A stretch of DNA of 55,008 nt from Candidatus Kerfeldbacteria bacterium CG15_BIG_FIL_POST_REV_8_21_14_020_45_12 (GTDB taxonomy: Bacteria > Patescibacteriota > Patescibacteriia > UBA9570 > XYC2-FULL-38-9): positions 14,746 to 69,753 of the forward strand of contig PFGC01000042.1 in the NCBI GenBank assembly GCA_002781785.1, read 5' to 3'. The notes beneath the pieces are model-generated. The model was not told the DNA's origin. It was given only the letters and a program-made list of their open reading frames with translations, and searched no databases. Numbering within the stretch: the stretch's first letter is position 1; each line of letters starts with the position of its first letter. A program made the translations under genes and the position numbers. Shown here piece after piece: positions 5,914 through 46,052 of this stretch.

Positions 5914-6273
5914 TCAGTGGATCCCCAGGCGGTGGGCGGTGTAGACCTGGTCCACACCGTTCATGTGCTGATCGACGGTTGCACTGCCGCAGATCGGGTA
6001 GTGCTCGGGCGAAGTGCCCCAGGCCTTGGCCGGGAGACCGTTGGCGCAGTGCGAGGCGCCCGGCAGGTCACGCCCGGACTTGGCGGGCCGCTGGTGGTGG
6101 CGCGGCGGCGGGGCCGGACGACCACAGACGACGGAGGCGCCGCGGGGACTGACCTCGACGTGGCAGTTGCCGGTGCTGACGCCGACACGCACCGCCACGG
6201 GCTTGGCCTCGGCGGAACCAGTGGAAGCCAGCATGGCAACCAGGGCCAGCAGCATCAGGGGGGTCTTGGACAT
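5914..6273 (-). CDS. Small secreted protein of unknown function (119 aa, 4 Cys, Pro/His-rich) encoded in a GC-rich island
   Basis: Start moved to the ATG at 6273, preceded by GGAGGA. Sec-type signal MSKTPLMLLALVAMLASTGSAEA|KP. It has its own terminator downstream. The many overlapping ORFs on both strands here are GC artefacts. Confidence 0.55.
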   Translation of the reverse strand: MSKTPLMLLALVAMLASTGSAEAKPVAVRVGVSTGNCHVEVSPRGASVVCGRPAPPPRHHQRPAKSGRDLPGASHCANGLPAKAWGTSPEHYPICGSATVDQHMNGVDQVYTAHRLGIH

Positions 6274-6398
6274 GGGATCCTCCATCACTCAAGGCAGAAA
6301 CTTCCGCCTAGGTTCACATGCATTTCGAGCTATGCGAACGCGCAATAATAGCAAAAAAATGGTCATTTGTCAATACCCTCTTAAAAGAAACTCTTAAT

Positions 6399-10376: not shown

Positions 10377-13300
10377 TTAAGCTGCGTCTTTGTCTACTCT
10401 GATGACACCTTCTTCATCAGAAGATTCGTTGGCGCGCTCACGATATTCGAATGGGCGTTCATTGCGCTCAGCTTTCGTTGCGTCAATATCAATCGCCTTA
10501 TCGTCACTATCGAGCAACTCAACATCAAGACCAAGTCCCTTCAACTCACGAACCAGCACGTTAAAGGATTCAGGAACATTTTCCTTGATAATATCCTCTC
10601 CCTTAATGGTAGCCTCGTAAGCCTTTGAACGTCCTGGAACATCATCAGATTTAATCGTCAACATTTCCTGAAGAGTATGAGCGGCTCCATATGCCTCAAG
10701 TGCCCACACTTCCATTTCTCCAAAACGCTGTCCGCCAAACTGAGCTTTACCACCCAGTGGCTGTTGAGTTACCAAACTGTATGGACCAATCGAACGTTGG
10801 TGAATCTTGTCTTCAACCATGTGATTAAGTTTCAGCATGTATGAAACACCACACATAACTGTTCTATCAAACTTCTCACCGTTACGGCCGTCGTTCAACT
10901 CAATCATTCCATCTCGTGGGAATCCAGCACGTTCAAGTTCGTCACGAATAGTATCGTCTTTTACTCCATCAAATGGCGGAGTAGCAACTTTGTACCCAAG
11001 GGTACGAGCCGCCAAGCCAAGATGAGTTTCCAGCACCTGTCCTAGGTTCATACGAGATACCACACCGAGTGGATTCAAAATAATATCAATCGGCGTACCG
11101 TCGTTCATGTAAGGCATGTCTTCTACTGGAACAATACGTGAGATAACACCTTTGTTTCCATGACGACCAGCCATCTTATCACCAACTTGGATCTTACGAA
11201 GTTGAGCGATAGTTACCTGAATGGTTCTAGTTACTCCTGCTGGCAACTTATCGCCGTTCTCCTTGCTAAAAATTTTAACGTCAATAACTTTTCCATGCTC
11301 ACCGTGAGCCAAGTATAAAGATGAATCTTTCACGTCCTTAGCCTTCTCTCCGAAGATAGCACGAAGCAGTTTTTCTTCAGCTGAAAGTTCAGTCTCACCC
11401 TTTGGTGTGATTTTTCCAACCAAGATATCACCAGAATAAACCTGAGCGCCAATTCGGATAATACCGTGCTCGTCTAAGTTCTTCAGCTTCTCTTCAGAAA
11501 CGTTAGGGATATCACGAGTTACCTGCTCAGGCCCAAGCTTGGTGTCACGCACATCAACGCTATAATCTTCGATATGAATAGAGGTGTAACGATCAGCTTC
11601 AACCAAACGACTAGAGATCAAAATAGCATCTTCATAGTTACCACCTTCCCATGGCATGTATGCCACAGTTACGTTTTGTCCAAGCGCTAACTCACCACCA
11701 TCGGTAGCTGAACCATCAGCTAGAATCGCTCCAGCTTCAACTTTTTGACCTCGGTCAACAATTGGCCTTTGGTTAATAGAGGTAGAAGCGTTAGAACGAA
11801 CAAAGCTCTTCATTGGATACTCTCGAATGCCTAGCTTGCCTTTAATCAAGACACGATTGGCGTCTACTGCTTCTACAGTTCCAGCCTCTTCCGAAACCAC
11901 AACCTGTCCAGAATCTTTAGCTGAACGATGTTCAACGCCCGTACCTACCACTGGGGAGTCAGGCTGAATGCAAGGCACCGCCTGTCGTTGCATGTTTGTT
12001 CCCATCAGGGCACGAACAGCATCGTTATGCTCAATAAATGGAATCAGCGCCGTTGAAATCGAGATAATCTGCTTCGGCGATACATCCATGTAATCAATTT
12101 TTTCAACACCAGCCACAATCGGTTTCATGTGCTCTCGAACCTCAGCCCGCTCTGCCACAAAGTATCCGTTCTCATCAAGCTCTGTCGTAGCAGCCGTGGT
12201 TGTTAGTTTTTCTTCGGTAAAGGCATCAATATATTCAACATCATCACTAACACGAGGCTTAACTGGGACAGCCTCAAGCTTCTGCATTTTCTTAGCTTGA
12301 TCCTTAGTGATTTTATCACCGGCCTTTGCAACAACTGAACCGTCGACCTCGATGTCTTCTCTGGCAATCTCGCCCTCAGCCTCAGCTGGAATTGGATCGT
12401 GCACAACTTTTCGGAAAGGAGTCTCAATGAAACCAAAATCATTAATCCGAGCGTAGGAAGCCAAGTGACCAACCAGTCCAATGTTTGGACCTTCTGGAGT
12501 AGCAATCGGACAAATACGACCATAATGAGTGCGGTGAACATCTCGAACTTCAAAACCAGCGCGTTCACGAGACAAGCCGCCTGGACCCATCGCAGATAAA
12601 CGACGTTTATGTTCAAGCTCTGCCAGAGGATTGGTTTGGTCCATGAACTGCGACAACTGTGAGCTCATGAAAAATTCCTTCACTGAACCAATCACCGGAC
12701 GAGCGTTGATTAAAATTCCAGGAGTCAGAGTTTCAACATCCTTAGTAGACATTCGATCTTTTACGATACGCTCCATTCGGGACAAACCAATCCGGAATTT
12801 GTTTTGCACCAATTCACCCACTGCTCTCACGCGTCGATTTCCAAGATGATCAATATCATCTGGTTCTTCCTGAGTGATGTTTAAACGAATAACTTCACTA
12901 ACAATTTCAACTAAATCTTCACGGCGTAAAACACGAGTGTCAGGAGTATTAGGAATGTCAAAACCAAAACGCTTGTTAATTTTATATCGACCAACTCGAC
13001 CAAAGTCATATCGATCGAAGTTAAAGAACATGGCGTGAATCAAAGAGCGCGCATTATCAACTGTAGCTAGATCGCCTGGTCGAATACGTTTGTAAACTTC
13101 TTTTAAACCTTCCGCTTCTGATTTAGCAACGTCTTTCTCCAAAGTAGCAGCAATGTACTGATTGTTCGGATCAATATCAACATCCTTAAATAGTTCCAGA
13201 ATTTCCTCATCGGTGCCATATCCCAAAGCCCGCATCAAAGAAGTTACTGGAACTTTACGCTTACGGTCTACCTTCACATAAATAACATTGTCATGATTTG

Positions 13301-14251: not shown

Positions 14252-15577
14252 TTAGATCATTTTTACCTTCCGCATCGCCTCTCGTGCCACCTCCCTGTCG
14301 TCCCAATTTATCTTCTTACCTCCAGCTAAACACATCTTTTGTTCAGCTCCTTTTGCCGTCAAAATGACCACATCTCCAGGCTTAGCTAAAGCACAAGCCT
14401 TAACAATAGCCTCAGATCTGTCCAAAACACGCCAAAAAGTCTCACCTTCTACCTTACCGGCCTTGAGCACACCTTCCGCCACCATATCTATAATCACTTG
14501 TGGATCGTCATCATACGGGTCCTCGTCTGTCACGATGACATAATCACAGAGCTCGCCCGCCACCTGACCGTTTGGCGCTCGTCTACCAACGTCACGGCCG
14601 CCGCCAGTTGAACTTATTAAAGTAATTAATTTGTTGCCTGATTCAATTCGCGCCCGACAAAACTCATAAAGCAGTCGCAAACTCACCGGTTCATAAGCAT
14701 AATCAACAATCACTGCATAATCCTGCCCCTCGTCGACAAACTCCATACGCCCCGGCACCGGCTCAAGTTCCGCCACAGAATCTATCATTTCTGGCAGGTT
14801 AATTCCCACAGCCGAACCAATTCCCATGGCCATCGCCGTATTCATAACATTCCATTTTCCCAACAAAGGAATGCGAGCTGGCCTACAATCAACTTGGAAT
14901 TCCGTGCCATTGATCTGTTCTCTAATATCAGTCACATAAATGTCATTTGGCTCTGTTGTGCCAACTCTCACTTTAAGGTGATCACCGATGGCTAAAAAAT
15001 CCTCAGCAAAATCAGAATCAGTATTGATAACACTGGCCTTCTCTATCTTCTTTCCGTTAATCACCTTGCTTGGCAGAGCCGACAAGTGGGTGAATAGTTT
15101 CAATTTTGCAGCTTTATAATTATCAAAACCACCGTGTGACTCCAGGTGTTCTGGTGAAATATTTGTAAAAGCGCAGACATCAAAATGAATACTGGAGTGC
15201 CTATATTGTTTAATTCCCTCTGAAGTTGTCTCAACCACGGCTACATCACAACCCTCTCGCCACATTTCTCGTAGTAAACGTTGCATTCGAAAACGACCCA
15301 GCATCGTCATTTTGGTATCGTTCAACTTTTGCTTATTGCCAATTCTAAAATTAATAGTTCCAGTAACACCAACCGTATGCCCGGCGTCAGTCAAAATCTT
15401 CCAAAGAATATTACTGGTCGTCGATTTTCCTTTAGTTCCGGTTACTCCAATCACAATCATTTTACGAGATGGGTGCTGGTAAATAACCGCTGCTAGCCAC
15501 GCCACCGCTCGATAATAAAAGTCCATCACTTGAGATGGAGTCAACTTCCTAGCTAATTCTTTTAAGCGGTAAAACAT
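14252..15577 (-). CDS. murE: Mur ligase, MurE-like UDP-MurNAc-tripeptide synthetase (short N-terminus)
   Basis: P-loop VIGVTGTKGKSTT, VVETTSEG, FTNISPEHLESHG, and a C-terminal domain with VTDEDPYDDDP where mDAP-type enzymes carry DNPR. Start moved from 15718 to the ATG at 15577, 5 nt after the mgtC stop. The longer ORF would overlap mgtC. Confidence 0.8.
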   Translation of the reverse strand: MFYRLKELARKLTPSQVMDFYYRAVAWLAAVIYQHPSRKMIVIGVTGTKGKSTTSNILWKILTDAGHTVGVTGTINFRIGNKQKLNDTKMTMLGRFRMQRLLREMWREGCDVAVVETTSEGIKQYRHSSIHFDVCAFTNISPEHLESHGGFDNYKAAKLKLFTHLSALPSKVINGKKIEKASVINTDSDFAEDFLAIGDHLKVRVGTTEPNDIYVTDIREQINGTEFQVDCRPARIPLLGKWNVMNTAMAMGIGSAVGINLPEMIDSVAELEPVPGRMEFVDEGQDYAVIVDYAYEPVSLRLLYEFCRARIESGNKLITLISSTGGGRDVGRRAPNGQVAGELCDYVIVTDEDPYDDDPQVIIDMVAEGVLKAGKVEGETFWRVLDRSEAIVKACALAKPGDVVILTAKGAEQKMCLAGGKKINWDDREVAREAMRKVKMI

Positions 15578-15582
15578 AACAA

Positions 15583-16044
15583 TTAGTCCTCTTTGCCCTG
15601 AACTGGAGGAATCAGATGCCCCAACAAATATAATACAATCATCACCAGCGCTGTAGAAACTATGGCTGTCCAATACCACCCGACACCAACCGCCATCCCA
15701 ATCGCAGCGCACAGCCAAACACTAGCCGAAGTAGTCAGTCCCCGAATTTTATCATCACGAAAGACAATCATGCCGGCACCAAGAAAACCTACCCCCACCA
15801 CAATCTGGGACATAATCCGAGAAACATCTACCCCCGACTGAAGTTCGTGACCTGAAAAACCATACAGTGAGATTAACGTAAAAAGAGTGGACCCCATAGT
15901 TACTAAGCCCAAAGTACGCGGTCCGGCCTCCTTTTTATCAGCTCTGCGCTCAAATCCAACAACACCCCCCAGCAGCAGTGCTAAAGCAATTTGAGCAATA
16001 TAAATAAGTTCCTGATTCATAACTTCAGTATAAAGGAATCTCAC
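15583..16044 (-). CDS. MgtC/SapB-family membrane protein
   Basis: ALALLLGGVVGFERR motif plus four or five hydrophobic helices. The track start at 16044 is GTG; an ATG at 16020 (MNQELIY) is an alternative. Confidence 0.85.
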   Translation of the reverse strand: MRFLYTEVMNQELIYIAQIALALLLGGVVGFERRADKKEAGPRTLGLVTMGSTLFTLISLYGFSGHELQSGVDVSRIMSQIVVGVGFLGAGMIVFRDDKIRGLTTSASVWLCAAIGMAVGVGWYWTAIVSTALVMIVLYLLGHLIPPVQGKED

Positions 16045-16055: not shown

Positions 16056-16943
16056 CTAGACCTGTTGTCGAGGCGGTAAGGCCTCTACTGCCACAACAGG
16101 GCTTGGCGGGTAAATAATCTGTAGATCACCATCGGGCGTGAACTGCGCCGATTCTGCTCCAAGAATATATTCAGCCAAGGCACGTCGTGGGTCAGCCAAA
16201 CGAACCTCCGCCGGACCGTCGCTAAAGATTTTAACCCAATCCTCTTGTGAAAGTGGTCTTAACTTAGCATCATCAACCAATAATCTAATGCCGGCCATGG
16301 CCAACAGTCTGTCAGAGACCTCATCACCGCTCCCCCAATCACCTTCCCGAAAATTAAACCATTGCGCATTCCAACGCATCTCATTCATCTCGGGAGTAAT
16401 GTACTTCAAATGAGCCGGGTCAAGCCGTGCGACCGAAAAAATAACGCGCCATTCATCACTCATAGCACGCATCACTCTTTCTAACACACTGGGAAGGTTA
16501 AACTCCTCGGCCATTCGCTGTAGTTCAGGACGGCGCTCTGGCTCTTGTATAGTTATTGCAGCCAGCCACTCAAATGTTTTTGATAACTCATATAGCGCAC
16601 TCATTTCTTCAGCTGAATGCCCAGTAGTATTATTTTCAAAGCGATTCGCATCCCTGACGCGAGCCTGCAAAGCATCTTTAATATCTTCATCACTTGATTG
16701 CGGCACTTCTCCAACAGAGGTGCCGACAAGCTCCGCGTAACAAGACAGCATGAATGCCTCACGAAGAACGCCAATATTCCTATGATCTTCAATAGTTACG
16801 CGCTGTAGGGCTCGCACCTCAGGCGTCAAATCAACCAGCGGATCAAAACCAAAACTACGGCGCTCTGGCACGGTTTCACGATTACGGAGCAATGAACCTG
16901 CGCGCTCCCGACCGACTTGTAACTGACCATCTCTTCTTCTCAT
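16056..16943 (-). CDS. Hypothetical protein P3 (295 aa); member of the MRR..GRxRAxxL / LPPRxxV terminal-motif family
   Basis: N-terminus MRRRDGQLQVGRERAGSLL and C-terminus PDGDLQIIYPPSPVVAVEALPPRQQV. The start overlaps the P2 stop (ATGA). No signal peptide or TM segment, and no domain I recognise. Confidence 0.6.
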   Translation of the reverse strand: MRRRDGQLQVGRERAGSLLRNRETVPERRSFGFDPLVDLTPEVRALQRVTIEDHRNIGVLREAFMLSCYAELVGTSVGEVPQSSDEDIKDALQARVRDANRFENNTTGHSAEEMSALYELSKTFEWLAAITIQEPERRPELQRMAEEFNLPSVLERVMRAMSDEWRVIFSVARLDPAHLKYITPEMNEMRWNAQWFNFREGDWGSGDEVSDRLLAMAGIRLLVDDAKLRPLSQEDWVKIFSDGPAEVRLADPRRALAEYILGAESAQFTPDGDLQIIYPPSPVVAVEALPPRQQV

Positions 16944-17824
16944 AAGTTTGTTCGTGGCGGCAATGACCTCTCTTTAACCACCTCATTAAGAAAAGTGCAC
17001 TCAACGCGACCACTAGAGCCAACCCGAACAGCGTCGGCTGTTAAAAGAGCTTTCAAAGCTAAAAGTTCAGTGAGAATAAAGGCCTCTGTCGCAGTATTCG
17101 TAGCACCACCTGAGGCAACCTCATTAAGCTTTTCCTGCAACACTTTTTGCTGCTTAATAATTTTTTCCTCAAAACTCCGCATTGAAAAACCACCTGTTTC
17201 CAAATCATTAATCAAATCCCTCTCTGGGTGAATCATTCGTAAATACATCGCAGTCGGACAAGACAGTGCAAACAGTGCAAATTGATCACGAACCAACTCG
17301 CGATAGAGGCCAGAGTCATCACAAGTAATAGGCGGCTCCTCCGGAAACATAATTCGATGCATCAAAGCTAGCGGCAGCTCACTTGAATGTGACCGCAAGT
17401 GACTGCGCGATTCTCTTAAGCGCTTAAGAGGTGTTGATTCCAAAAGCGTCCTCCGTTCCATTGCTGAAATCGGTTGCCCAATTTGAGCCCAGGACAACAT
17501 TAGATCATAATCTTGACTATGAAACTGTCCTCCACGATTCAACGCTCTCGCAAAAGTGCCAAAAGATGTCCTACCAAAAAAATCTTTTTCTACCTCCTCC
17601 AACCTATCTGGCAACACTAATGACACCGCAGCCAAATGCATGCCCTCATACTGCATATCATTAAATCTGCCCGAAGCGTGCACATTAAACTCAAGAACTG
17701 CGCGTTGCTGGTCTTCGGTCAATCCATGTTCAAATTTAACCTCTTTAGCTGGCTCAGGCTCAATAGCAAGCTCCGTAGCTCGCAGTCTAATACCTTCAAT
17801 TCTACTACTACGATTGGCTCTCAT
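16940..17824 (-). CDS. Hypothetical protein P2 (294 aa); member of the same terminal-motif family
   Basis: N-terminus MRANRSSRIEGIRLRATELAIEPEP and C-terminus SSGRVECTFLNEVVKERSLPPRTNL. It starts 12 nt after the P1 stop. Confidence 0.6.
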   Translation of the reverse strand: MRANRSSRIEGIRLRATELAIEPEPAKEVKFEHGLTEDQQRAVLEFNVHASGRFNDMQYEGMHLAAVSLVLPDRLEEVEKDFFGRTSFGTFARALNRGGQFHSQDYDLMLSWAQIGQPISAMERRTLLESTPLKRLRESRSHLRSHSSELPLALMHRIMFPEEPPITCDDSGLYRELVRDQFALFALSCPTAMYLRMIHPERDLINDLETGGFSMRSFEEKIIKQQKVLQEKLNEVASGGATNTATEAFILTELLALKALLTADAVRVGSSGRVECTFLNEVVKERSLPPRTNL

Positions 17825-17836
17825 AAAATTACTTAA

Positions 17837-17977
17837 TCACACTTGTGGCCGCGGCGGCAAGGCTATAGTTTTCTCAACTGCAGGCACCTTCCAACACTGC
17901 ACACCATCATCATAATGAATAAGATCAGCCGCGCGGATTCTTCCTGATAAATTTGTCTCTCCTGTTCTACGCCTCAT
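17837..17977 (-). CDS. Small ORF P1 (46 aa, not in the supplied track): minimal member made of only the N- and C-terminal family motifs
   Basis: Own translation: MRRRTGETNLSGRIRAADLIHYDDGVQCWKVPAVEKTIALPPRPQV, stop TGA at 17837-17839. It lies 37 nt after the protease stop. No obvious Shine-Dalgarno, but P2 and P3 lack one too. Confidence 0.45.
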   Translation of the reverse strand: MRRRTGETNLSGRIRAADLIHYDDGVQCWKVPAVEKTIALPPRPQV

Positions 17978-18014: not shown

Positions 18015-20870
18015 CTAATTAACCCACCCACTAGCCACACGCACTGCAAACGTACCGGAACCAAAAGGGAAAAAAGTGTGCTTTTCTTCACCCTCTTTAG
18101 TAAAAACTGAAACTGCTGACTGAGTATCTCCGTTGGTTCCAGCAATTAATCGATCTTCTTTCTGTTGATTTAAATCACCTCCACCCACAGTAGCTCCTGC
18201 CGTATATGACTCAGTAAAAACAGAGAAGCCTGGACTTATGGCTACTAACTGATCCTCATTTTTTTCAAACATCAAAGTATGTGATGAACTACTAACTGGA
18301 GTGACTGCTAAAACATCATTACCGCTACCAAAGTTAGTTCGCGCAACCCTTACGCCTCCATGAAAAGATTCATCGTAAACATTCATATTAGTCAGCACCG
18401 CTCCAGTGCGACCGTTGTATACCATAACCTGAGGTCCACCGCCTTGACCGGCACCAACTACGATTTCATCAATACCATCTCCGTTCCAATCAAGTCCCGT
18501 CACGTAAGTGCCGCCAGTAAAAACCCCATCCAGAGCCATAAACGACAAGATTTCTGAACCATTTTTTTCAAAAACACGCACGTGCGGTGACCCCCCTTCT
18601 CCCGGCACAGTCACAATTTCATCTAAACCGTCACCGTCAAAATCACCTGTCCCTACTCGTACGCCACCACTAAATCCTGGGTCATAAGCTAAAAATTGTT
18701 CGAGTCGCTCACCGTCTCCGTCAAACACGCCAACCAGAGGTAAGCTACCAGCATCCAAAGCTACTACAACTTCATCTTTTTTATCTGCATCAAACTGACC
18801 CACTGCCACTTCAACTCCCGTCCGCAAGTTCTCGTCAAAAGCATACCAAGTTTCTTCAAACGATCTATTTTTCAAATTATAAATCCTAACCTGCGGCGCA
18901 CCGCCCGGACCAGCTCCAACCACTACCCGTTCACGTGGATAAAACTTGCGGGTATTTTTCGTGGAGGTTGCTACGTTAGATAAATCGTCCTTGGCTCGCA
19001 CTCGATACTGATACCGCTTGTTCCGCTTCACACTCGAATCGGTAAAAGCTGTATCAGTGCTAGCTACAGAACCAATTTTCTTAAAATCACCATTGGCACT
19101 TAAATTTTTTCGCCTTACTATGTAGCGACTAACATGCTGGCCTTTGACTTTATTCCACTCAACCTTAACGCCGTCAGAGACCAGACTGGTTGTCACTCCT
19201 TCTGGCTCAGCCACCTCAGTATCAATAATGTACTCGTGCGTCGACGCTGTAACTGTCACATCATTCGCATTATCCAGAGACTTTAATCTCAAATAGTAAG
19301 AGACATCGTCTCCACTAATTTTACTACTTGGCTCAAACGATCGAGCGGTTTGAAAAGTTCCCTCCAACTCCGGATCAGCCTGCGCATCCGTTCCAAAATA
19401 TACATAGTACCCGGCAATACCATCAGGATCAGATGGTTCTGACCAGGAAAAATATGGCTTTCTGTCAGCCTTTCTAGCTCCATCGCTATAGGTTTTATTT
19501 AGACTAGCTGCGTTATAAGCAGAAATAGTAGGGGCCGGTGGATTATCCAACACTTCCAAGCCTGCCAGAGCGGTGGCAGCGTCTACTCTACCAACTCCAT
19601 ACTTAGATTCCAGTCCAGTATCAACAGCACTACTAGTAAGTACGTCATAAAATTGTGAGTCAGTAATGTCAGAACGTTCTGCTTTCAACAAAGCAGCTAC
19701 TCCCACGACTACTGGAGTGGCCATAGAAGTTCCACTCATGTAACCATAGTCTGTCGTAAAATCATTGGTTGGATCATCTGTGTACAAAGTTGAATAAATA
19801 TTCTCACCAGGAGCGGCAATATCCGCGCAATCAGTTCCATAGTTAGTGAAATATGAGGCCTCCCCATCATAGCCCACTGAGGTCACTCCAATTACATCAT
19901 CATAACAAGCTGGATAAAACCCCAAGTCATTTACACTAAGACCGTTATTGCCTAACGCTGAAACGACTAACACGCCATGACTTACGGCATATGCCACAGC
20001 GCTCTCCAGCGCCGAGGTAGTACCAAAACCACCCAAGCTCAAATTAATAATGCTAGCTCCATTGTCCACGGCATACTCAATACCCTCAGAAATTTCAGCA
20101 TCACCCCCTGCCCCTTCGTCGTCCAATACCTGAACCGCCATAATCGACACCTGCCAATTAACACCTGCTACACCAATTGAATTATTCCCCACTCCACCAA
20201 TAATTCCAGCCACGTGTGTACCGTGAGTGGTGCCACTGTCTACACCATTGTAATCATCGTCATTACTACCATTTGGTGAAGGTGTCGGATCACCATTGCC
20301 GTCAACAAAATCATATCCGTTTACATCATCAACATAACCATTGCCGTCATCATCAATACCGTTTCCGACAACCTCTCCCTCATTCACCCAAATATTATCG
20401 GCAATGTCTTCGTGATCAAGATCGACTCCAGAATCAATCACCGCCACGACAACTTCGCTAGATCCGGCCTGAGTGTCCCAAGCTGTCTCCGATGAAATAC
20501 TGACATCATCCTGATAATGATGCCATTGAAAAGCATACTTGGCATCGCTTGGCGTAGCCGTTGCTCGTCTGATTACCTCACGCTCAACTGTCAAAATAGA
20601 GGCGTCGCCCGCTAATTGCTCAACATAGGATTCTGCACTAACCTCCGCTGGAATTGTAACTGATTCAATTTCAGAAATACTAGGCTGCTCCCCCAACATA
20701 AATGCAGTCCAATCATTGATTGTAGGAGCGTAACGCACCAGGACAACATCTTCTGAGTATTCTGGAGTCGGAAAATTATCAGCCAAGACCGGTGAAATTC
20801 TAAAAAAAACAGCGCCCATCACGCCTGGAAGTAGCAACCATCGCCACTTTTTCACAAAATGAATCATCAA
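18015..20870 (-). CDS. Secreted subtilisin-like serine protease (S8) with FN3-like domains and C-terminal FG-GAP/VCBS repeats (951 aa)
   Basis: Signal/TM segment WRWLLLPGVMGAVFF. Catalytic triad AVIDSGVDLDH, HGTHVAGIIGG and SGTSMATPVV. FN3-like VKVEWNKVKGQHVSRYIVRRK...YQYRVRA. Repeats GDFDGDGLDEIV, LDWNGDGIDEIVVGAG and GQFDADKKDEVVV. Confidence 0.9.
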   Translation of the reverse strand: MMIHFVKKWRWLLLPGVMGAVFFRISPVLADNFPTPEYSEDVVLVRYAPTINDWTAFMLGEQPSISEIESVTIPAEVSAESYVEQLAGDASILTVEREVIRRATATPSDAKYAFQWHHYQDDVSISSETAWDTQAGSSEVVVAVIDSGVDLDHEDIADNIWVNEGEVVGNGIDDDGNGYVDDVNGYDFVDGNGDPTPSPNGSNDDDYNGVDSGTTHGTHVAGIIGGVGNNSIGVAGVNWQVSIMAVQVLDDEGAGGDAEISEGIEYAVDNGASIINLSLGGFGTTSALESAVAYAVSHGVLVVSALGNNGLSVNDLGFYPACYDDVIGVTSVGYDGEASYFTNYGTDCADIAAPGENIYSTLYTDDPTNDFTTDYGYMSGTSMATPVVVGVAALLKAERSDITDSQFYDVLTSSAVDTGLESKYGVGRVDAATALAGLEVLDNPPAPTISAYNAASLNKTYSDGARKADRKPYFSWSEPSDPDGIAGYYVYFGTDAQADPELEGTFQTARSFEPSSKISGDDVSYYLRLKSLDNANDVTVTASTHEYIIDTEVAEPEGVTTSLVSDGVKVEWNKVKGQHVSRYIVRRKNLSANGDFKKIGSVASTDTAFTDSSVKRNKRYQYRVRAKDDLSNVATSTKNTRKFYPRERVVVGAGPGGAPQVRIYNLKNRSFEETWYAFDENLRTGVEVAVGQFDADKKDEVVVALDAGSLPLVGVFDGDGERLEQFLAYDPGFSGGVRVGTGDFDGDGLDEIVTVPGEGGSPHVRVFEKNGSEILSFMALDGVFTGGTYVTGLDWNGDGIDEIVVGAGQGGGPQVMVYNGRTGAVLTNMNVYDESFHGGVRVARTNFGSGNDVLAVTPVSSSSHTLMFEKNEDQLVAISPGFSVFTESYTAGATVGGGDLNQQKEDRLIAGTNGDTQSAVSVFTKEGEEKHTFFPFGSGTFAVRVASGWVN

Positions 20871-21091: not shown

Positions 21092-21892
21092 ATGATCAAT
21101 GCAACTCGGTATCTAGACAGACAAGTCGTACATCCAGTGACCCTGGCCGCCAAGCTCCAAGCTCTGGCGGAAGTCACTACCAATACAGCTCCCCTGAGCG
21201 TCCAGCACCTGCTGGCCGATCTGGATGACTGTTCTCTGGACACGAGTCCGCGCACCGTCCATCTACTGGGAGACTTCCTGGATGATTCCTTCCCAGGAGA
21301 CTCCAAAGCAGCACAGGCGCTGGCCGCGGCGCAAAAGCTGGTAGAGCTGGGGCAGGTGCCATACCTGGCTCGCGAGCTCTGGTTGACTGTCATGGGACAA
21401 GAGGGCGACAAGCACATCGGTGATTGGTTCGCCTACTGGCAAGCCCACTTCTTCACCAACGAAGCGCTCGTCCACGACCTGCCGCACCCCGGCGTGGTGA
21501 AGTGGCTCCAAGGCCTAGACGCCAACTTCCCCAAAGTGGGATACCTGACCGGTCGACACCGACCCAACCCTAGCAGTCGACACCCATCTGGGATGGAGCT
21601 GGGCACCATGGCCACGCTCTGGAAGCATCGGTTCCCCCTGGGACCCCTCTACATGAAGGGCCAGTGGGGAGGAGACGACACCGCCTACAAGCAGGGCCTC
21701 TTCCAGCAGCTTCTGGCTGCAGGGGAAGTCTACCCCCTGGGCTACATCGACAACGAACCCAGCTGTGTCATCGCCCACCACGAGGTCATGACGGCCGCCT
21801 CCTTGCCCCACCTCTCGGTTTGGTTCAAGGGAGTCTGTCAGAAGCCAGCTGATCTCCCGCCGGATATTCTCGTGCTCGAATCTTTCGAGTAG
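21092..21892 (+). CDS. HAD-superfamily-like hydrolase (tentative), encoded in a GC-rich island
   Basis: 266 aa. Candidate HAD motifs in the expected order: HLLADLDDCSLDT (DxDx-), VGYLTGR (motif II Thr), YMKGQ/AYKQG (Lys), GYIDNEP (acidic motif IV). GGAG lies 5 nt before the ATG. Antisense ORFs here are GC artefacts. Confidence 0.45.
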   Translation: MINATRYLDRQVVHPVTLAAKLQALAEVTTNTAPLSVQHLLADLDDCSLDTSPRTVHLLGDFLDDSFPGDSKAAQALAAAQKLVELGQVPYLARELWLTVMGQEGDKHIGDWFAYWQAHFFTNEALVHDLPHPGVVKWLQGLDANFPKVGYLTGRHRPNPSSRHPSGMELGTMATLWKHRFPLGPLYMKGQWGGDDTAYKQGLFQQLLAAGEVYPLGYIDNEPSCVIAHHEVMTAASLPHLSVWFKGVCQKPADLPPDILVLESFE

Positions 21893-26213: not shown

Positions 26214-27173
26214 TTACCTATCTAGAAGTTTAGAGAAATATTCCATATATGATCTCTGCATTTGTGCGGTTTGCTTCTCGTGTCCTGGGGGAAAATAGAT
26301 CATAGGCTTACTATTTATCTCCACTAAATATGGACGGCCGCGTTCAAAGAAAAAATCAACTGAAAATAGTTTGTCTGGATATACAGCAAAAGACCTCAAT
26401 ACTCTCTGAACGTAGGGCTTGAGCACCTTTGGAATTTTAGAAATAGGCACAAAAATCACACCTCCACCAAGAGACATATTACATAATTTTGTACCCGGAG
26501 CCGCCGTTCTAATATAAGAAATAATTGGCTTGTCACCTGCAAAGATTATTCTAAAATCATGAATACCTCGATACAATCCAGGGACTCCGCCTTGTGTATC
26601 AACAAACCTCTGCACTATTGTTAAACCACTAATATTAACCTGTCGAGCTTTCTGCTTAGAAATAATCTGTACTCCGTCACCTCCATATCCCAAACGCGGC
26701 TTCATAACAACCTCAGCTGACGGAATCTTTTTTAGAGCCTCGTGCAGATCAGTTTTCGTACGGACTAAAAATGTTTCCGGCGTAAAATCTGCAAAGCTGG
26801 TTGCCGTTAGCATTTTATCAGAAGAAATCAAATCTAGCTCCCAAGCATTTACCACATGAAAGCGCTCATTTATTTCCATTTTTTTTGTGAGCGTGGCATA
26901 GCTGAGTGTGCTCTTGTCCATAATCACATCAGGTAGAATCGGCTTACGCAGTTTTATCCACCGACCACCTTTCCATCCCCACGCCCGCGTAAATGAACCA
27001 TCTTTATACCACTGCTGTGAAAACCTGACTGGCTCCATTCCATATTCATCACGTGCCAAAGTAAAAAATGACTCATACGCCTCTCGTTGATCCGACTTCT
27101 TATCGGAAAAAGGTAGCGGCTGGTTCCAGTCGCTACCGGGGTACATTACTCCAAATATCTTTCGCTTAGCCAT
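26214..27173 (-). CDS. ATP-grasp ligase C (YheC/YheD- or RimK-like)
   Basis: VVMKPRLGYGGDGVQII, HDFRIIFAGDKPIISYIRTA..GTKLCNMSLGGG, and YLVEINSKP. Confidence 0.6.
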   Translation of the reverse strand: MAKRKIFGVMYPGSDWNQPLPFSDKKSDQREAYESFFTLARDEYGMEPVRFSQQWYKDGSFTRAWGWKGGRWIKLRKPILPDVIMDKSTLSYATLTKKMEINERFHVVNAWELDLISSDKMLTATSFADFTPETFLVRTKTDLHEALKKIPSAEVVMKPRLGYGGDGVQIISKQKARQVNISGLTIVQRFVDTQGGVPGLYRGIHDFRIIFAGDKPIISYIRTAAPGTKLCNMSLGGGVIFVPISKIPKVLKPYVQRVLRSFAVYPDKLFSVDFFFERGRPYLVEINSKPMIYFPPGHEKQTAQMQRSYMEYFSKLLDR

Positions 27174-27179
27174 AAAAAA

Positions 27180-28214
27180 TTACTTAAACATGGCTCTTAC
27201 TATCTGACGTGACACATTGCGGGCTTTTCCTTCTTGTGGAAAATGATGCATAGCAAAGTCAGGATGCTGATTTAACTCGAGAACAACGCCATCAGTATGG
27301 CGTACTGACTTGCTAATGTCAGTGCACAAAAAATCAAGTCCAGCCAAACGTAAATTCATCACCTTGCAAATTCTCAGCGCCAGCTCCACATTTGCCTTGC
27401 TGATCTTGTCTGTGACATCGTGAACTTCACCACCAGCACCGAAATTGCAAACGTTTTTTAACATTACTCGTCTATCCGCTGACGGAATAGACCGCATGTT
27501 CAATCGTTGTGACTTTAACTTATTTTTTAGCTCAGCATCAATGCTGATAGGCCCAAGCTTTATCTCGTGAACCTGCTTTCGCTTTTCATTCTTTTCTCTG
27601 ATTAAAGCTCCAATATTACTCACACCGTCACCGACAACATAAGCAGGAATTCTATGTAAAACACCGATTACCTTGTTATCCAAAACTAAAACCCGATAAT
27701 CATTTAAATCCTGATGAAACTCCTCAACCAAAATACTTGAGTAGGTCTGGAAACCTTTCTTCAAGTATCTCATCAAGTCGCGCTGCCCAGAGATATTTGT
27801 AACGACGCCAAGACCCTTTAGCGTGCCGTAGGTAGGTTTAACCACCAATGGAGCTCTTAGACCACTAACACTCCAATCTCCCTTGGCAAAAGACTTTTTC
27901 TGAATTCTAACAGAGCGTGGTACCGGAATTCCAGCATCTCTCAAAATTGAGTTAGTATAAAATTTATGATCCGCAATGTCAGCTCCTACGTAGTTATTCA
28001 AAGACGTAATAGCGCCTCTGATAAAATGACTCTGTCTCCCACAGGAAACTCTGAATATATTTAAATCTTCATAGACATCAACTCGGTACTTCAGATCAAG
28101 AGCCTCCTCTGCAAGTAAACGCGAGAGTGGTCGCAAATTACCAAGCAAACTTTGAGCGTTGTCTTTGGTGATCCGGATAAGTGAATTCGACATAAAAAAA
28201 GTATTAGTCAACAA
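27180..28214 (-). CDS. ATP-grasp ligase B, cyanophycin-synthetase G-domain-like, no Mur-ligase domain
   Basis: ADHKFYTNSILRDAGIPVP, LVVKPTYGTLKGLGVVTNI, YVVGDGVSNIGALIREKNEKR, LAGLDFLCTDISK, VLELNQHPDFAMHHFPQEGKARNV. Confidence 0.7.
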   Translation of the reverse strand: MLTNTFFMSNSLIRITKDNAQSLLGNLRPLSRLLAEEALDLKYRVDVYEDLNIFRVSCGRQSHFIRGAITSLNNYVGADIADHKFYTNSILRDAGIPVPRSVRIQKKSFAKGDWSVSGLRAPLVVKPTYGTLKGLGVVTNISGQRDLMRYLKKGFQTYSSILVEEFHQDLNDYRVLVLDNKVIGVLHRIPAYVVGDGVSNIGALIREKNEKRKQVHEIKLGPISIDAELKNKLKSQRLNMRSIPSADRRVMLKNVCNFGAGGEVHDVTDKISKANVELALRICKVMNLRLAGLDFLCTDISKSVRHTDGVVLELNQHPDFAMHHFPQEGKARNVSRQIVRAMFK

Positions 28215-29241
28215 AAACCGCTTTCATTAATTCAGGAATCACATCAGTCGGCCCTCCTGCTCTAGGAAAATAATGCAGAACAACACCTGGAGATGCGTTA
28301 ACTTCTAAAATACCACCATTGCCTGGACCTATCGGTTTTGTAATATCATGGCAAAGCACGTCTACACCAGCCAAGCGTAACCCCATGGCTTCTGTAGCTC
28401 TGACCGCAAAATCAATATTAGCTTGTGCTACTTGATCGGTGCAATTAACAGAGTAACCACCGCTTGATAAATTAGCTACATTCATTAACCGAACATTAAC
28501 TCCATTTTCTGGAATATCCGCAATACGAAATCCCTGTTCCGCCAAGGTTTGATGCAACTCACGGCCCACTCTAACAGCTCCAAATCTAAGCTTCCACTCC
28601 TTACGTCTTTTGGCATTAACCGCATGAATCAATTCTTCTATAGTACTTGTACCGTCACCAACAACCTCTCCGGGATGACGCTGCGCAGCTGCCAATAACT
28701 TGCCGTCAAGCACCAACAACCGATGATCAGTCATGCGGCCGTAATATTCTTCAATAATAACTGATCCATACAATTCAAAAGACTCATCTAGAACATCAAA
28801 AAGAGTTGGCTCATCAACAATGTTTGTCACAACACCTTGACCCTTAAGAGTTCCCACCTCTGGCTTAACCACCAGTGGAAAAACATCCGGTCGTGAAAAA
28901 CCAAGCGCACTAACAGTTCGACTTGTTAGTCTTCTATACTCAACTCTTGGCAAAGAAATACCACTTGGACAAGGCACGCCCTCCTGAGCAAAGCGCTCCT
29001 TCGCCATACCCTTGTGGTCAGCTAGATAAGTTGCAGATCCATCATTCAATGGAACAATTGCATCAACTACTAAAGCTGATTTACCCTGATGAGACATTCT
29101 GAATACTCGCTTTGGGATAAGATATTCTACGGAATATCCCAGCTTAGTTGCCGCCTTGGCATATTCATTATTCATCCATTCCCAAGACAACATGACCGGC
29201 GGATCGTTTGCAACGTCGTCCAAAGCAATAATAGAATTCAT
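28204..29241 (-). CDS. ATP-grasp ligase A, paralog of B (cyanophycin-synthetase G-domain-like)
   Basis: LVVKPEVGTLKGQGVVTNI, EVVGDGTSTIEELIHAVNAKRR, LAGVDVLCHDITK, ILEVNASPGVVLHYFPRAGGP. It overlaps B by 11 nt. Confidence 0.7.
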   Translation of the reverse strand: MNSIIALDDVANDPPVMLSWEWMNNEYAKAATKLGYSVEYLIPKRVFRMSHQGKSALVVDAIVPLNDGSATYLADHKGMAKERFAQEGVPCPSGISLPRVEYRRLTSRTVSALGFSRPDVFPLVVKPEVGTLKGQGVVTNIVDEPTLFDVLDESFELYGSVIIEEYYGRMTDHRLLVLDGKLLAAAQRHPGEVVGDGTSTIEELIHAVNAKRRKEWKLRFGAVRVGRELHQTLAEQGFRIADIPENGVNVRLMNVANLSSGGYSVNCTDQVAQANIDFAVRATEAMGLRLAGVDVLCHDITKPIGPGNGGILEVNASPGVVLHYFPRAGGPTDVIPELMKAVFVD

Positions 29242-29253
29242 GTAATCTTTTTT

Positions 29254-29517
29254 CTAATCTTCGGTTCTATATCTCTCCTTCAAGCTATCTATAGTATTTT
29301 CGACAGTCTCGAGTGTTTTTTTCAATTCCTCCGCTAATTGCAGTCCTCGCTCAAATCTCTTTAACCCTTCGTCTAGCGAAACCTCCTCTTCATCAAAGGA
29401 GGCTACAATTTCTTCAAGCTCAGTAAACTGCTTCGCAAATGATTGAGCAGCCACAGCTTTTGAGCCGGCCTTCTTACTCACAGTTGGAATGGCTTTTTTT
29501 GCGGACATAGTAGTCAC
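29254..29517 (-). CDS. xseB: Exodeoxyribonuclease VII small subunit
   Basis: FTELEEIVASFDEEEVSLDEGLKRFERGLQLAEELKKTL, with a Lys/Ala-rich N-terminal extension. Confidence 0.85.
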   Translation of the reverse strand: MTTMSAKKAIPTVSKKAGSKAVAAQSFAKQFTELEEIVASFDEEEVSLDEGLKRFERGLQLAEELKKTLETVENTIDSLKERYRTED

Positions 29518-29523
29518 ATTGTA

Positions 29524-30696
29524 CTATTTTTTCGACGTTTCGTCAATGGTTGATCGCGCCGTACCATCAGCAAACCTTAATTCAACCTGCTGCCCAGGCG
29601 TCAGCCGCTCAACTCCTGAAATAATCTTACCATCCACCCCCAATACCATAGAATATCCTCTTTTTAGAACTTCCTGGGGATTGAATGACTGAAGTAATTG
29701 AACAGCGTGGTCCAAGCGCTCCCTCGACACAGCCACCGAATTTATAAATCTCTCAAATCCTATTCTAAGACGTCTATCTAGATCAGCTGTTTGAGTTAAC
29801 TGTAAACGAGTCTGCTGATCCAATTTATCAACGGCGCTAGCAACAGAATCTTGTCGTCTTCGTAAAATTTCGCGTAATTGACGCTCCAAGCGATCAGTTA
29901 TCTGCGCAAGCTCTAGTGTCACATCACGCTTATCTGGAACCATTATTTCAGCAGCGTTAGATGGTGTAGAAGCCCTCACGTCAGCCACTAAATCTGCCAA
30001 GGTCACATCTCGTTCGTGCCCTACTCCAGAAACTACTGGAATGTTACAAGCAAAAATCGCCCGAACAATTTCTTCAGAATTAAAAGCTTGCAAATCTTCT
30101 AGGGAACCGCCTCCGCGAGTAAGCAAGATACAATTCAAATCTTTTTGTTCTTCACTCATTTGCTGCAGCGCCTTAACAATTGAAGGTACTGCTCTGGCTC
30201 CCTGTACGCTAACGTTAGCATGAAGAACTTCAAGTCCCGCCCAACGATTCTTTAATACTCTTAGAACGTCCGTATATGCTGCGGCGTCACTACTTGTTAT
30301 CAAGCCTATTTTTCTAGGAAAACGTGGTAGCTGGCGCTTTCGTGATTCATCAAAAAGACCTTCCTGTTCCAATTTACTTTTTAAAAACTCATACGCCTGT
30401 TTCAAGCCGCCCTCCCCAACTAACTCCACTTGTCTCGGACGAAAAACATATTGCCCTTTTTTAAATGTTGTTGGTGACCCCACTAACCGAACTTCCATAC
30501 CATCTTTTAACGATACCTTTAACTGAAAGGCCATCATGAAACATTGAACTGAGGTATCTTCATCAACCAGTGTAAACCACACGAATCTATTCTGAGAAAC
30601 ACGAAAGTCAGAAATTTCACCTTGAACAGCTACTGTTACTTGTCCTAGCAGCTCATTAATTTCGTCTCTAAACTCGGAAACAGAGTAAATGTGCAT
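29524..30696 (-). CDS. xseA: Exodeoxyribonuclease VII large subunit
   Basis: OB-fold N-terminus (VAVQGEISDFRV..FVWFTLVDE), IGLITSSDAAAYTDVL, LLTRGGGSLEDLQAFNSEE, PVVSGVGHERD. Confidence 0.92.
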   Translation of the reverse strand: MHIYSVSEFRDEINELLGQVTVAVQGEISDFRVSQNRFVWFTLVDEDTSVQCFMMAFQLKVSLKDGMEVRLVGSPTTFKKGQYVFRPRQVELVGEGGLKQAYEFLKSKLEQEGLFDESRKRQLPRFPRKIGLITSSDAAAYTDVLRVLKNRWAGLEVLHANVSVQGARAVPSIVKALQQMSEEQKDLNCILLTRGGGSLEDLQAFNSEEIVRAIFACNIPVVSGVGHERDVTLADLVADVRASTPSNAAEIMVPDKRDVTLELAQITDRLERQLREILRRRQDSVASAVDKLDQQTRLQLTQTADLDRRLRIGFERFINSVAVSRERLDHAVQLLQSFNPQEVLKRGYSMVLGVDGKIISGVERLTPGQQVELRFADGTARSTIDETSKK

Positions 30697-30938
30697 TACT
30701 TATGACGCAATTCAAAAGTCCACTCTGATTCTCTGTAAATATGATAGTACCTATCATCTGACAATTTCACTGCCCTGAATTCACCTCTGGGAATTTCTAA
30801 TATTTCTACCCTAAGCTCCTCTGATGAATGCAGGCCTCGATAGAGTCTTTTTAGCTCCTCCTCTGATATCCCTTCACCAGCAACTAGGTGATAAGTTACC
30901 TCAGCCTCACCGGGAGTGCTACTAAAATGAATATTCAT
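30696..30938 (-). CDS. Hypothetical protein (80 aa)
   Basis: This ORF exactly fills the space between the HAD gene and xseA, overlapping both by 1-4 nt. No recognisable motif. Confidence 0.4.
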   Translation of the reverse strand: MNIHFSSTPGEAEVTYHLVAGEGISEEELKRLYRGLHSSEELRVEILEIPRGEFRAVKLSDDRYYHIYRESEWTFELRHK

Positions 30939-31525
30939 AAAACTAAACCTAATGATAATTCATTTACTTCTTCAGTGTACCACTGACAAGCCTCATCAAC
31001 ATATGGGGTACCCGTTCGTCGAAGCCAAATATATTTAGCCTGAGGCATGGCACTATACATAGAATCAATCTCAGAACCTCGATCATTTATCACTATCACC
31101 TCTCGTCCAGCGTACTGTTGAATTGATTCTGCCTTATCACCATCCGTGGTAATGACATGGTCAGCAAAAACCCCAACGCCTGAGTCTCTAATTTTACGAT
31201 CCTGCCAGACAGGCGATCCAAAAGATAAAATAGTAACATCTGCTTCTTGAATGTTTTTCAAAAATGGCCACACATCAGGATATACAAACTGCTCTGCATT
31301 TTCCAATACTTTCATGGAAGTTTCAACCAACTGCTCTATTGCGCCTCCCTTTGCTAATAAAGCCAGGTGAGCTTCAAGCGTATACAACCCGTCAGCTTTA
31401 ACCTGCCGCTCAGTATCACGGTACCAACCTTCAGTAACACCATAACTTGCTAGCGCCTCTATCAATGCCTGGCGCATTGCTTCGGTGTTAAATAGTGTGT
31501 AGTCAAAATCTAGAATGTAGCGCAT
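30935..31525 (-). CDS. HAD-superfamily hydrolase
   Basis: Motif I YILDFDYTLFNT (DxDxT) at the N-terminus. 196 aa, with a late acidic motif VIVINDRGSEID. Confidence 0.7.
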   Translation of the reverse strand: MRYILDFDYTLFNTEAMRQALIEALASYGVTEGWYRDTERQVKADGLYTLEAHLALLAKGGAIEQLVETSMKVLENAEQFVYPDVWPFLKNIQEADVTILSFGSPVWQDRKIRDSGVGVFADHVITTDGDKAESIQQYAGREVIVINDRGSEIDSMYSAMPQAKYIWLRRTGTPYVDEACQWYTEEVNELSLGLVL

Positions 31526-32415: not shown

Positions 32416-32425
32416 ATTACGTAGC

Positions 32426-34140: not shown

Positions 34141-34143
34141 GGG

Positions 34144-34719: not shown

Positions 34720-34751
34720 TGGGCTATTGTATCACTGAGAGCCCAACCCGA

Positions 34752-44638: not shown

Positions 44639-44781
44639 GGAGTGTTCACCTCCTTTCGCACAGTATGTGTGTTCACAATTTGTACAGCTACAATAACATA
44701 GATTTCTATAAAAATCAAGTTGCTGAGGATAACTATATATTCTCACTTCTTCATATCAACCTAGACATAACCAAAAAACTC

Positions 44782-44790
44782 TGGTATAGT
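44782..44790 (+). promoter_or_regulatory. Extended -10 element (TGgTATAGT) upstream of pilin-like gene 2
   Basis: TG at 44782-83 and TATAGT at 44785-90, about 30 nt before the ATG at 44821. Confidence 0.35.
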
Positions 44791-44820
44791 TTTACATAAC
44801 AAATCAGTCATGGTACTTCC

Positions 44821-45246: not shown

Positions 45247-45250
45247 AAAT

Positions 45251-45661: not shown

Positions 45662-45665
45662 AACC

Positions 45666-46034: not shown

Positions 46035-46052
46035 TAGTGTAAAAGATTACTT

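Follow-up and report, generated by a model that had tools for sequence, protein, structure and literature searches.

Conserved ends around divergent middles: a lineage-restricted protein family without recognisable domain in a Candidatus Kerfeldbacteria genome

Background

Several described systems contain fast-diverging proteins of one genome, some of them encoded in tandem, which have only short terminal segments in common and carry no Sec signal. Among effector and cargo families, short terminal targeting is known from the C-terminal signals of type IV secretion system (T4SS) substrates, from the internal proteins of phage T4 with their N-terminal capsid-targeting segments and from encapsulin cargo peptides. 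The antigenic-variation cassettes of Anaplasma (msp2/p44), Borrelia (vls) and Neisseria (pilS) are built differently: clustered copies have conserved 5' and 3' parts around a hypervariable centre, and the flanks are conserved as DNA for gene conversion. Here we analyze three consecutive genes, P1 to P3, from a 55,008-nucleotide (nt) stretch of the uncultured, groundwater-type Candidatus Kerfeldbacteria bacterium CG15_BIG_FIL_POST_REV_8_21_14_020_45_12 (contig PFGC01000042.1, positions 14,746 to 69,753; the whole stretch is referred to as the window). Their products share both termini around divergent middles, and three further members, P4 to P6, were found in the same genome.

The family resembles the effector and cargo proteins in the features named above. 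It differs from them in that both ends are conserved and one member, P1, consists of the ends alone; further, genes for a secretion ATPase, a capsid, an encapsulin shell or a phage are absent from the annotated neighbourhood, and we know of no targeting signal that is matched by the motifs of P1 to P6. As regards T4SS substrates in particular, only T4SS_pilin paralogues were found (44.3-47.2 kb of the window), with no VirB4 or VirD4 in the annotated 75 kb. The likeness to antigenic-variation cassettes lies in the clustered copies with conserved outer parts, whereas here only amino acids are conserved, the full-length copies are complete genes and the products are of cytoplasmic type. Diversity-generating retroelements would require features not seen here: there is no pair of template and variable repeats in the clusters and no reverse transcriptase domain among the annotated window genes. 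Polymorphic-toxin immunity arrays have other surroundings, since the neighbours are genes for an S8 protease, mgtC, guaA, ftsK, an FMN reductase gene and an MGMT-like gene, and neither Pfam nor PADLOC gives a match. P1 to P6 also differ from families of phages and plasmids, having no PHROG membership and no homologue in viral and plasmid collections.

Bacteria of the candidate phyla radiation (CPR, Patescibacteria) have small genomes rich in species-restricted genes, and species-level clusters of unknown genes are extremely common among them (45,788; AGNOSTOS, PMC9132574). Like those clusters, P1 to P6 are confined to one species-level lineage and unannotated; however, clustering by sequence keeps the members apart as singletons. 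Orphan status alone is therefore ordinary in the phylum, and families of lineage-specific paralogues that diverge fast and have terminal segments in common are of a known kind. What is unusual is that both termini are conserved around middles that cannot be aligned, that one mini-member consists of the ends only, and that the family is visible only to end-anchored comparison. As far as can be told, the linkage of members through anchored terminal motifs, together with an end-only member, has not been recorded before. Several such singletons of one genome can thus form a family that is seen only through motifs anchored at start and stop.

Six proteins with common ends

P1 to P6 constitute a real family. 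It has at least six members, which occupy three unrelated positions in operons within about 85 kb, the portion of the genome covered (window and both flanks). Common to them are the motif MRR..R.RA..L at the first methionine and, at the stop codon, a beta-strand segment followed by LPPRxx[V/L/I]. Two regular expressions were derived from P1 to P3 alone, MR.{1,3}R.{5,9}R.RA..L for the N-terminus and LPPR..[VLI]$ for the C-terminus, the latter placed at the stop. In six-frame translation the N-terminal expression matches exactly six open reading frames (ORFs) of this genome, and these are P1 to P6; the C-terminal one matches five of the six and misses P4, which has LPDR. The N motif always sits at the first ATG after an upstream stop, the C motif always ends at the stop, and both are found nowhere else in 32,551 six-frame segments. 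Because P4 to P6 were outside the original finding, they replicate the motif independently. The two expressions had 0 matches in 30,536 segments (1.95 M residues, about 1.6 Mb) from the rpoB neighbourhoods of 80 related genomes.

Full-length members have 284-324 amino acids (aa), and the family is rich in arginine (9.1% vs 5.2%) and glutamate (9.4% vs 6.4%). Calling the members paralogous rests on their ends, similar length, composition and arrangement, the middles being demonstrably homologous only between P4 and P5, for which BLASTP gives E 2.5e-4; this is the only pair with detectable similarity in the middles. Exact copies of P5 and P6 are deposited as hypothetical proteins of Candidatus Kerfeldbacteria bacterium (PIW36677.1, COW24_03890, and PIW37323.1, COW24_00690), and in UniRef each member forms its own singleton cluster (n=1).

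The ORFs of P1 to P3 are real genes with native codon usage. Codon log-likelihoods (bits per codon) were computed with a model built from 34 other window genes. P2 to P5 score 0.220-0.235 in frame (P2 0.220, P3 0.225), while the host mean is 0.223 with a standard deviation of 0.06; P1 scores 0.113, inside the host range (minimum 0.079). All five alternative frames are negative for P2 to P5 and likewise for P1, the GC content at third codon positions is host-like, and the five ORFs of about 300 codons are intact. Such codon usage points to genes that are native or of long residence, not to a recent import.

The similarity of the ends exceeds chance only in tests anchored at start and stop, that is, the signal is positional. 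When the first 22 and last 30 residues were aligned globally in anchored position, all 10 pairs among P1 to P5 reached z = 2.1-6.4 over 43 other window genes, at both ends. In contrast, P2 and P3 compared by BLASTP reach E 0.42, their best high-scoring segment pair being at the C-terminus, and hhalign of whole proteins finds no significant match. A sequence-only reading of the trio had described it as paralogues with shared termini; the claim stands on the anchored scores and on the specificity of the expressions, while BLASTP, hhalign and unanchored hidden Markov models (HMMs) lend it no significance.

Conservation at the level of protein

The ends are conserved as protein. Identity by codon position in the aligned ends of P1 to P5 is 0.45/0.49/0.35 at the N-terminus and 0.40/0.48/0.29 at the C-terminus, the third position being lowest in both. 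Residues shared by two members are encoded by the same codon in 37 of 103 cases (N) and 25 of 83 (C), or 62 of 186 overall. For example, LPPR is written TTG CCG CCG CGG, TTG CCG CCA CGA, TTA CCG CCT CGA or CTA CCG CCT CGA, depending on the member. Since identical residues mostly lie on different codons, the conservation is not that of a DNA repeat. Moreover, scans of the clusters and their surroundings detected neither inverted, tandem or other DNA repeats nor target duplications; the copies have no direct repeat of >=14 nt in common, and neither cluster contains one >18 nt.

These results bear upon the idea that the genes are recombination cassettes of the msp2/p44, vls or pilS type, with conserved ends that serve as DNA handles for gene conversion of the variable middle. 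Superficially the layout is alike, tandem copies having a hypervariable core between conserved flanks. The low identity of the end DNA (0.29-0.49 per codon position, with the third lowest) and the use of different codons for shared residues effectively refute it, and to this can be added the lack of direct repeats, the completeness of the full-length copies as genes and the fact that the proteins are not surface proteins; we regard such cassettes as highly improbable. Conservation confined to the protein level excludes recombination handles, element termini and variation of the retroelement type.

P1 is of special interest in this respect. Its N-terminal basic motif (MRRRTGETNLSGRIRAADL) is joined straight to the C-terminal beta-strand segment and LPPRPQV tail, without a helical body. 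That P1 keeps both motifs while its synonymous sites are scrambled argues for its retention by selection on amino acids. Possession of both end modules without any middle suggests that the ends form a functional unit by themselves, and this seems to agree a little better with a self-contained module than with a tag for export or processing only.

Searches for relatives and lineage restriction

The family is restricted to a species or lineage. P1 to P5 were compared with Pfam, NCBIfam, PADLOC and PHROGs, and P6 with Pfam; all matches were weak (E 0.011-0.41, far under curated cut-offs), and PHROGs gave nothing under E 0.16. The lack of a recognisable domain, noticed from the letters alone, is thus borne out in all four collections, and profile searches placed neither P2 nor P3 in a well-characterised family. 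A word-indexed search of 5.8e9 proteins with P2, P3 and a four-member profile returned the queries only, and exhaustive phmmer with P3 against 1.84e9 representatives returned P3 itself only. A profile gave nothing under E 0.5 against PDB sequences, there were no matches in IMG/VR, INPHARED and PLSDB (viral, phage and plasmid collections), and nothing on the P1-P6 family was found in the literature. The large searches with P3 and the profile also miss the paralogues within the genome (phmmer with P3 missed P2 and P4 to P6), so they exclude close orthologues only, not equally diverged relatives. Standard clustering and profile searches miss the end-anchored signal, and the motif scan of related genomes is better evidence for lineage restriction.

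Metagenome contigs were scanned with a degenerate DNA pattern for R.RA.[ED]LA.EPEP, which yielded 57 matches, the organism's own contigs being absent from the results. We judged these matches to be chance, as most present an internal RPRAAELAAEPEP in high-GC proteins (VDVSLRDGNQSLWG...), which by the look of their sequence we take to resemble carboxyltransferases of the oxaloacetate decarboxylase / pyruvate carboxylase type. The N motif alone is not diagnostic: RPRA.ELA.EPEP, the peptide taken as signature of the family, occurs in a conserved high-GC protein (loci L094-L149, GC 0.70-0.75) about 95 residues from the C-terminus. The same pattern gave nothing in viral contigs. Several further ideas, namely an AbrB/MazE-like swapped hairpin, an AT-hook, a WW domain, a precursor of a ribosomally synthesized and modified peptide processed by the S8 protease, and substrates of RimK-type ATP-grasp enzymes, were dropped with no supporting match.

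For the rpoB product, identity is 83% with the closest relative, a Candidatus Kerfeldbacteria metagenome-assembled genome, and 68-74% with other Patescibacteria. The organism occurs in samples JGI 3300004208, 3300005237, 3300025142 and 3300003830, ENA ERZ27293362, SRR6240784 and SRR5487654. In this closest relative the stop of the S8 gene and the start of mgtC are 12 nt apart and P1 to P3 are absent, which makes P1 to P3 a lineage-specific insert between tightly packed genes. Four more relatives have an S8 homologue beside the ligase gene (one also has mgtC), and the ends of the tblastn matches leave no space there for an insert of about 2 kb. The sequence-only reading had made its claim depend on the ORFs being conserved or expressed in relatives; the absence from the closest relative shows lineage restriction, not unreality of the family.

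Such a distribution invites the view that the genes are functionless or selfish passengers, either relics of an integrated element or young drifting genes, with the similarity of the ends left over from common ancestry or required by the element. Absence from the nearest relative, precise insertion between tight housekeeping genes at three unrelated sites, failure of protein searches to find homologues and the abundance of species-level unknown clusters in Patescibacteria mentioned above all agree with it. On the other hand, five ORFs of about 300 codons remain open, the codon usage of P2 to P5 is fully host-like, and the ends are kept as amino acids while synonymous positions are scrambled. 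Furthermore, the flanks contain no transposase, integrase, repeats or target duplications, and viral, phage and plasmid collections contain no relatives. We therefore consider passengers distinctly unlikely.

Predicted architecture

The first 18 or so residues carry a net charge of +3 to +4 and the following 17 or so a charge of -2 to -5 with an EPE patch, P3 excepted; in the N-terminal motif of P2 the charge is +3, then -2. The C-terminal 38 or so residues read, in the alignment, as the end of a hydrophobic helix, a strand, a G/N turn, a second strand, a loop, a third strand and LPPRxx-hydrophobic. The third strand would follow from the alignment and is absent from the structural models. These were made by AlphaFold2 with a shallow family alignment for P2 and P5, before P6 was known, and are of low confidence. 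The model of P2 has 13 helices and a C-terminal beta hairpin (strands 265-268 and 274-277), that of P5 has 15 helices and a C-terminal beta hairpin, with predicted TM-score (pTM) 0.57 and a per-residue confidence (predicted local distance difference test, pLDDT) of 63-82 in the core. The sequence-only reading had called the middles of P2 and P3 helical-looking and divergent, which agrees with the helical models and with the lack of similarity in BLAST and hhalign.

The body, predicted to be all-helical with 13-15 helices, would resemble TPR/Sel1-like proteins. Further, P2, P4 and P5 contain, in 2-3 copies each, a helix-start motif (hydrophobic-hydrophobic-[FYLH]-P-[D/E]) that resembles the '...L-x-P-[DN]' with which the consensus of the TPR unit ends. 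These copies are more than expected, as shuffles give about 0.12-0.19 (P = 0.0005-0.018) and host proteins have 0.14 per 300 aa. When PDB and BFVD were searched by Foldseek with the P5 model, the top matches were mostly TPR and other helical-repeat proteins, none of them significant (best E 0.47-0.69, TM-score <= 0.39); the top TPR matches, at E 0.5-3, were TTC5, MamA, YscY-class chaperones, Sti1 and PilF. There are also differences from TPR proteins. Pfam searched by hmmscan at E <= 1 gives no TPR, Sel1, HEAT or ARM model for P2 to P6, the repeats of TPR are spaced by 34-44 aa while the motif recurs at irregular distances of 39-89 aa in P2, P4 and P5, and the conserved N-terminal arm, beta segment and LPPR tail of the family have no counterpart there.

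Two readings of the conserved ends had been offered from the letters alone, that they come together as a small fold or that they act as tags. Both are kept here as rivals, the ends having pLDDT of 27-45 in the AlphaFold2 models. According to the first, the N-terminal segment and C-terminal beta strands pack as one split domain into which the helical body is inserted, P1 being the ancestral or minimal form without insert. P1 would be well explained, since in its 46 aa the N motif passes straight into the beta segment and both motifs are preserved as amino acids. Likewise, residues following R.RA..L alternate between hydrophobic and polar (LAIEPE, VEIEPE), compatible with a strand, and the ends of P3 are closest to those of P1 (z = 6.4 at the N-end, 11 of 16 C-terminal residues identical) although its middle is the most deviant, as if different inserts were tolerated. 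However, AlphaFold2 leaves the first 31-36 residues as coil with pLDDT of about 30 and predicts no confident association of the two ends. The C-terminal module could, as the alignment is read, make a three-strand beta unit without any strand from the N-terminus, and a beta mini-domain of 46 aa without cysteines or metal ligands is marginal for stable folding. A split domain thus appears to us rather unlikely.

A possible model of function

We suggest, with a probability of about 0.4, that P1 to P3 belong to a family, restricted to one species and quickly diverging, whose soluble cytoplasmic proteins combine variable helical binding bodies with common docking ends. A full-length member would have three parts. 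The first is an N-terminal arm of about 25 residues, predicted to be disordered, with a basic tip (MRRR...R.RA..L) and an acidic EPE patch behind it. The second, of about 230 aa, would be an all-helical body similar to an irregular TPR-like solenoid and almost wholly different between members. The third would be a C-terminal module composed of the last hydrophobic helix, a short beta segment and the LPPRxx[V/L/I] tail at the carboxyl terminus. The helical body may serve as a target-binding surface that diversifies between copies, while the two conserved ends may form a common working module that links each member to the same partner or members to one another. P1 would then be a mini-protein made of this module only and retained by selection; it may serve as a competitor, cap or adaptor. 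The genes presumably spread by duplication into gaps of housekeeping operons. They are co-directional with their neighbours and seem to be read through from upstream genes. The type of fold, a docking role for the ends and what P1 does are inferred.

Several points weigh against this proposal. Firstly, the analysis turned up no partner protein, and P1 could be a deletion remnant whose decay is still to come. Secondly, leave-one-out HMMs of a single end, used unanchored against the 32,551 six-frame segments, gave E 0.3-70. Thirdly, apart from P4 and P5, comparisons of the middles by BLAST and hhalign are not significant and homology of the middles is unproven. The models are weak too: mean pLDDT is 41.6 for P2 and 57.1 for P5, no fold match is found at E < 0.4, the ends have the lowest confidence (pLDDT 27-45) with the first 31-36 residues or so as coil, and P3 and P6 lack the P[DE] helix-start motif. 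Finally, all 10 loci retrieved from public contigs are 99.97-100% identical to the window, so that neither the ratio of nonsynonymous to synonymous substitution rates nor a population-level test of selection can be applied.

The second of the two readings, that the ends are tags, has to be weighed against the lack of signs of export. None of the six members has a transmembrane segment or a signal peptide; the maximum Kyte-Doolittle hydropathy (19-residue window) is <=1.63 and falls in charged amphipathic helices, and within the first 40 residues it stays <= 0.18 in all six. The hydropathy scan thus agrees with what was said of the trio from its translation. No Tat or Sec signal is recognisable, for MRRR is present but no hydrophobic h-region follows, and a sortase signal of the LPXTG type is not formed either, as only three residues stand between LPPR and the stop and neither a hydrophobic span nor a membrane anchor is present; no evidence for export came from either feature.

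As tags, the ends would be the two parts of a signal by which variable, effector-like proteins are passed on to a non-Sec machine, or else a mark for cleavage. A candidate for the machine is a T4SS or pilus-like apparatus of an episymbiotic CPR cell; the protease could be the S8 enzyme encoded next to P1 or a PDZ protease that recognises a hydrophobic C-terminus. The profile of many secreted effector families is matched: the proteins are multi-copy, fast-diverging and lineage-specific, their bodies look like helical repeats, a Sec signal is missing and the extreme termini are conserved. Moreover, six PF18895 T4SS_pilin paralogues are present in the window at a distance of 27 kb, all C-termini end in V, L or I, and P1 to P3 directly follow the S8 protease gene. 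Against these facts stand the absence of VirB4, VirD4 or any other secretion ATPase from the 75 kb annotated, and P1, which would be a tag without cargo. The Tat-like RR lacks its hydrophobic region and LPPR, three residues from the end, lacks a membrane anchor. Vicinity of the S8 gene is no trait of the family, given that P4 and P5 come after guaA and P6 after an FMN reductase gene, and that no such genes adjoin the S8 gene of the relative. On balance we think export or processing tags a doubtful explanation.

A more far-reaching version of the docking model would make the N-arm and the beta/LPPRxx-hydrophobic C-tail a new, self-sufficient docking or delivery module which loads a diversifying helical repertoire onto one machine of an episymbiotic CPR bacterium, with P1 as regulator or cap. 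This seems improbable to us. If it were true, the machine would serve secretion into the host cell, assembly or turnover, and similar end-anchored families could link many singleton genes in other CPR genomes. In general, ends that act as a module for docking, assembly or delivery would offer a handle on how an episymbiont diversifies its protein repertoire, and end-anchored search could be extended to other uncharacterised genes. If the ends are unimportant, P1 to P6 represent one more lineage-specific hypothetical family.

Layout of the locus and neighbouring genes

Positions of the members, of their conserved ends and of the two genes flanking P1 to P3 are listed in Table 1. The trio had been described as three consecutive minus-strand ORFs, tightly coupled, and this is confirmed together with the terminal strings quoted, which are exact: 12 nt separate the stop of P1 from the start of P2, and the stop of P2 overlaps the ATG of P3 as ATGA. 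The S8 protease gene stops 37 nt before P1, and mgtC starts 11 nt after the stop of P3. P1 has an alternative upstream start, TTG at 17986, which would give 49 aa. Public gene callers report P2 and P3 and leave out P1.

Table 1. Members of the family, their conserved ends and flanking genes (window positions unless stated otherwise)
Feature	Position	Strand	Description
P1	17837-17977	-	46-aa mini-member; ORF from ATG
P2	16940-17824	-	294-aa member
N-terminal motif of P2	17750-17824	-	aa 1-25: MRANRSSRIEGIRLRATELAIEPEP; basic tip, then acidic EPE patch; from alignment and regular expression
C-terminal module of P2	16940-17056	-	aa 257-294: end of last helix, putative short beta strands (AVRV / RVECTF / VVKERSL), LPPRTNL, stop
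P3	16056-16943	-	295-aa member
N-terminal motif of P3	16872-16943	-	aa 1-24: MRRRDGQLQVGRERAGSLLRNRET
C-terminal module of P3	16056-16169	-	aa 259-295: ...ILGAESAQFTPDGDLQIIYPPSPVVAVEALPPRQQV, stop
P4, first 86 codons	1-259	-	324 aa as a whole (MRRVREPSPIREGRPRAVDLGLVEPEEP...KLPDRSAI); found by the N-terminal expression; whole gene L087:11820-12794
P5	L087:12931-13869, outside the window		312 aa, MRRRSRDFVAPITPARERATSLQAEVEIEPES ... ELPPRVSI; between P4 and ftsK
P6	about 3 kb past the right window end	other strand	284 aa, MRRERGTPFPNRTRASELAREPEPTPE ... SASLPPRNSI; between FMN-reductase gene and MGMT-like gene
S8 protease gene	18015-20870		FG-GAP and fn3 domains; upstream of P1, co-directional
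mgtC	15583-16044		next gene after P3, co-directional

The genes belong to a co-directional run in the order S8 protease gene, P1, P2, P3, mgtC, Mur-ligase-family gene, rpoB, rpoC. The best promoter-like site of the stretch, and the sole good one, lies upstream of the S8 gene; apart from it, the promoter scan gave background only, and terminator-like sites around P1 to P3 occur at background frequency. P1, P4 and P6 sit 4-37 nt from the genes upstream of them, P4 beginning 7 nt past the stop of guaA and continuing beyond the left edge of the window.

Between P4 and P5 there is a 34-aa ORF, MKKHQQHATFPFKISMLIVITIFVGGLYWFLTTY (L087:12821-12925, plus strand), with one clear hydrophobic span; it stops 5 nt ahead of the start codon of P5 and is not called in public annotations. 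The Mur-ligase-family gene, taken mechanically as an ORF from TTG (14252-15718, minus strand, 488 aa), overlaps mgtC by 136 nt, whereas public calls use an internal start (14252-15577, 441 aa) that fits a spacing of 5 nt after mgtC.

Other features of the window

Scans for tRNA and Rfam families gave no matches in the window, and its remaining genes are ordinary CPR housekeeping genes. The six small paralogous genes with PF18895 T4SS_pilin (VirB2/TrbC-like) matches occupy 44279-47220 on both strands and adjoin, according to the gene table of an overlapping locus, a DUF2079 membrane protein gene (42198-44198).

Several ORFs coincide with GC-rich patches. One of 266 aa (21092-21892, plus strand; GC 0.56 vs about 0.44) without Pfam match lies between the S8 protease gene and lexA; at the same position the closest relative has a region of low complexity, rich in Ser, Glu and Pro, in which both strands contain long ORFs (L007:3117-3980). 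Another ORF, of 310 aa (53741-54673, plus strand, GC 0.56), has no Pfam family recorded and contains a GHSLGG motif typical of nucleophile elbows of alpha/beta-hydrolases; nor is a Pfam family recorded for the two genes that follow on the right (L091:10980-12152 and 12241-13233). Just downstream of rpoC, a patch with GC 0.54 (5914-6397) contains overlapping ORFs of 124-143 aa on both strands, without Pfam match, and public calls disagree on the strand: one assembly has calls of 62 aa and 138 aa there, another has one of 124 aa.

Four RimK/ATP-grasp-type genes lie on the minus strand at 26214-27173, 27180-28214, 28204-29241 and 34752-36206, the last of which also matches a Zn_protease domain. 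Near them is a gene for a membrane protein with PKD and 7TM_transglut domains (36187-37818, minus strand). The whole region 26214-37818 looks like an ATP-grasp peptide-modification system interleaved with ruvA, xseA, femAB and cofD-like genes.

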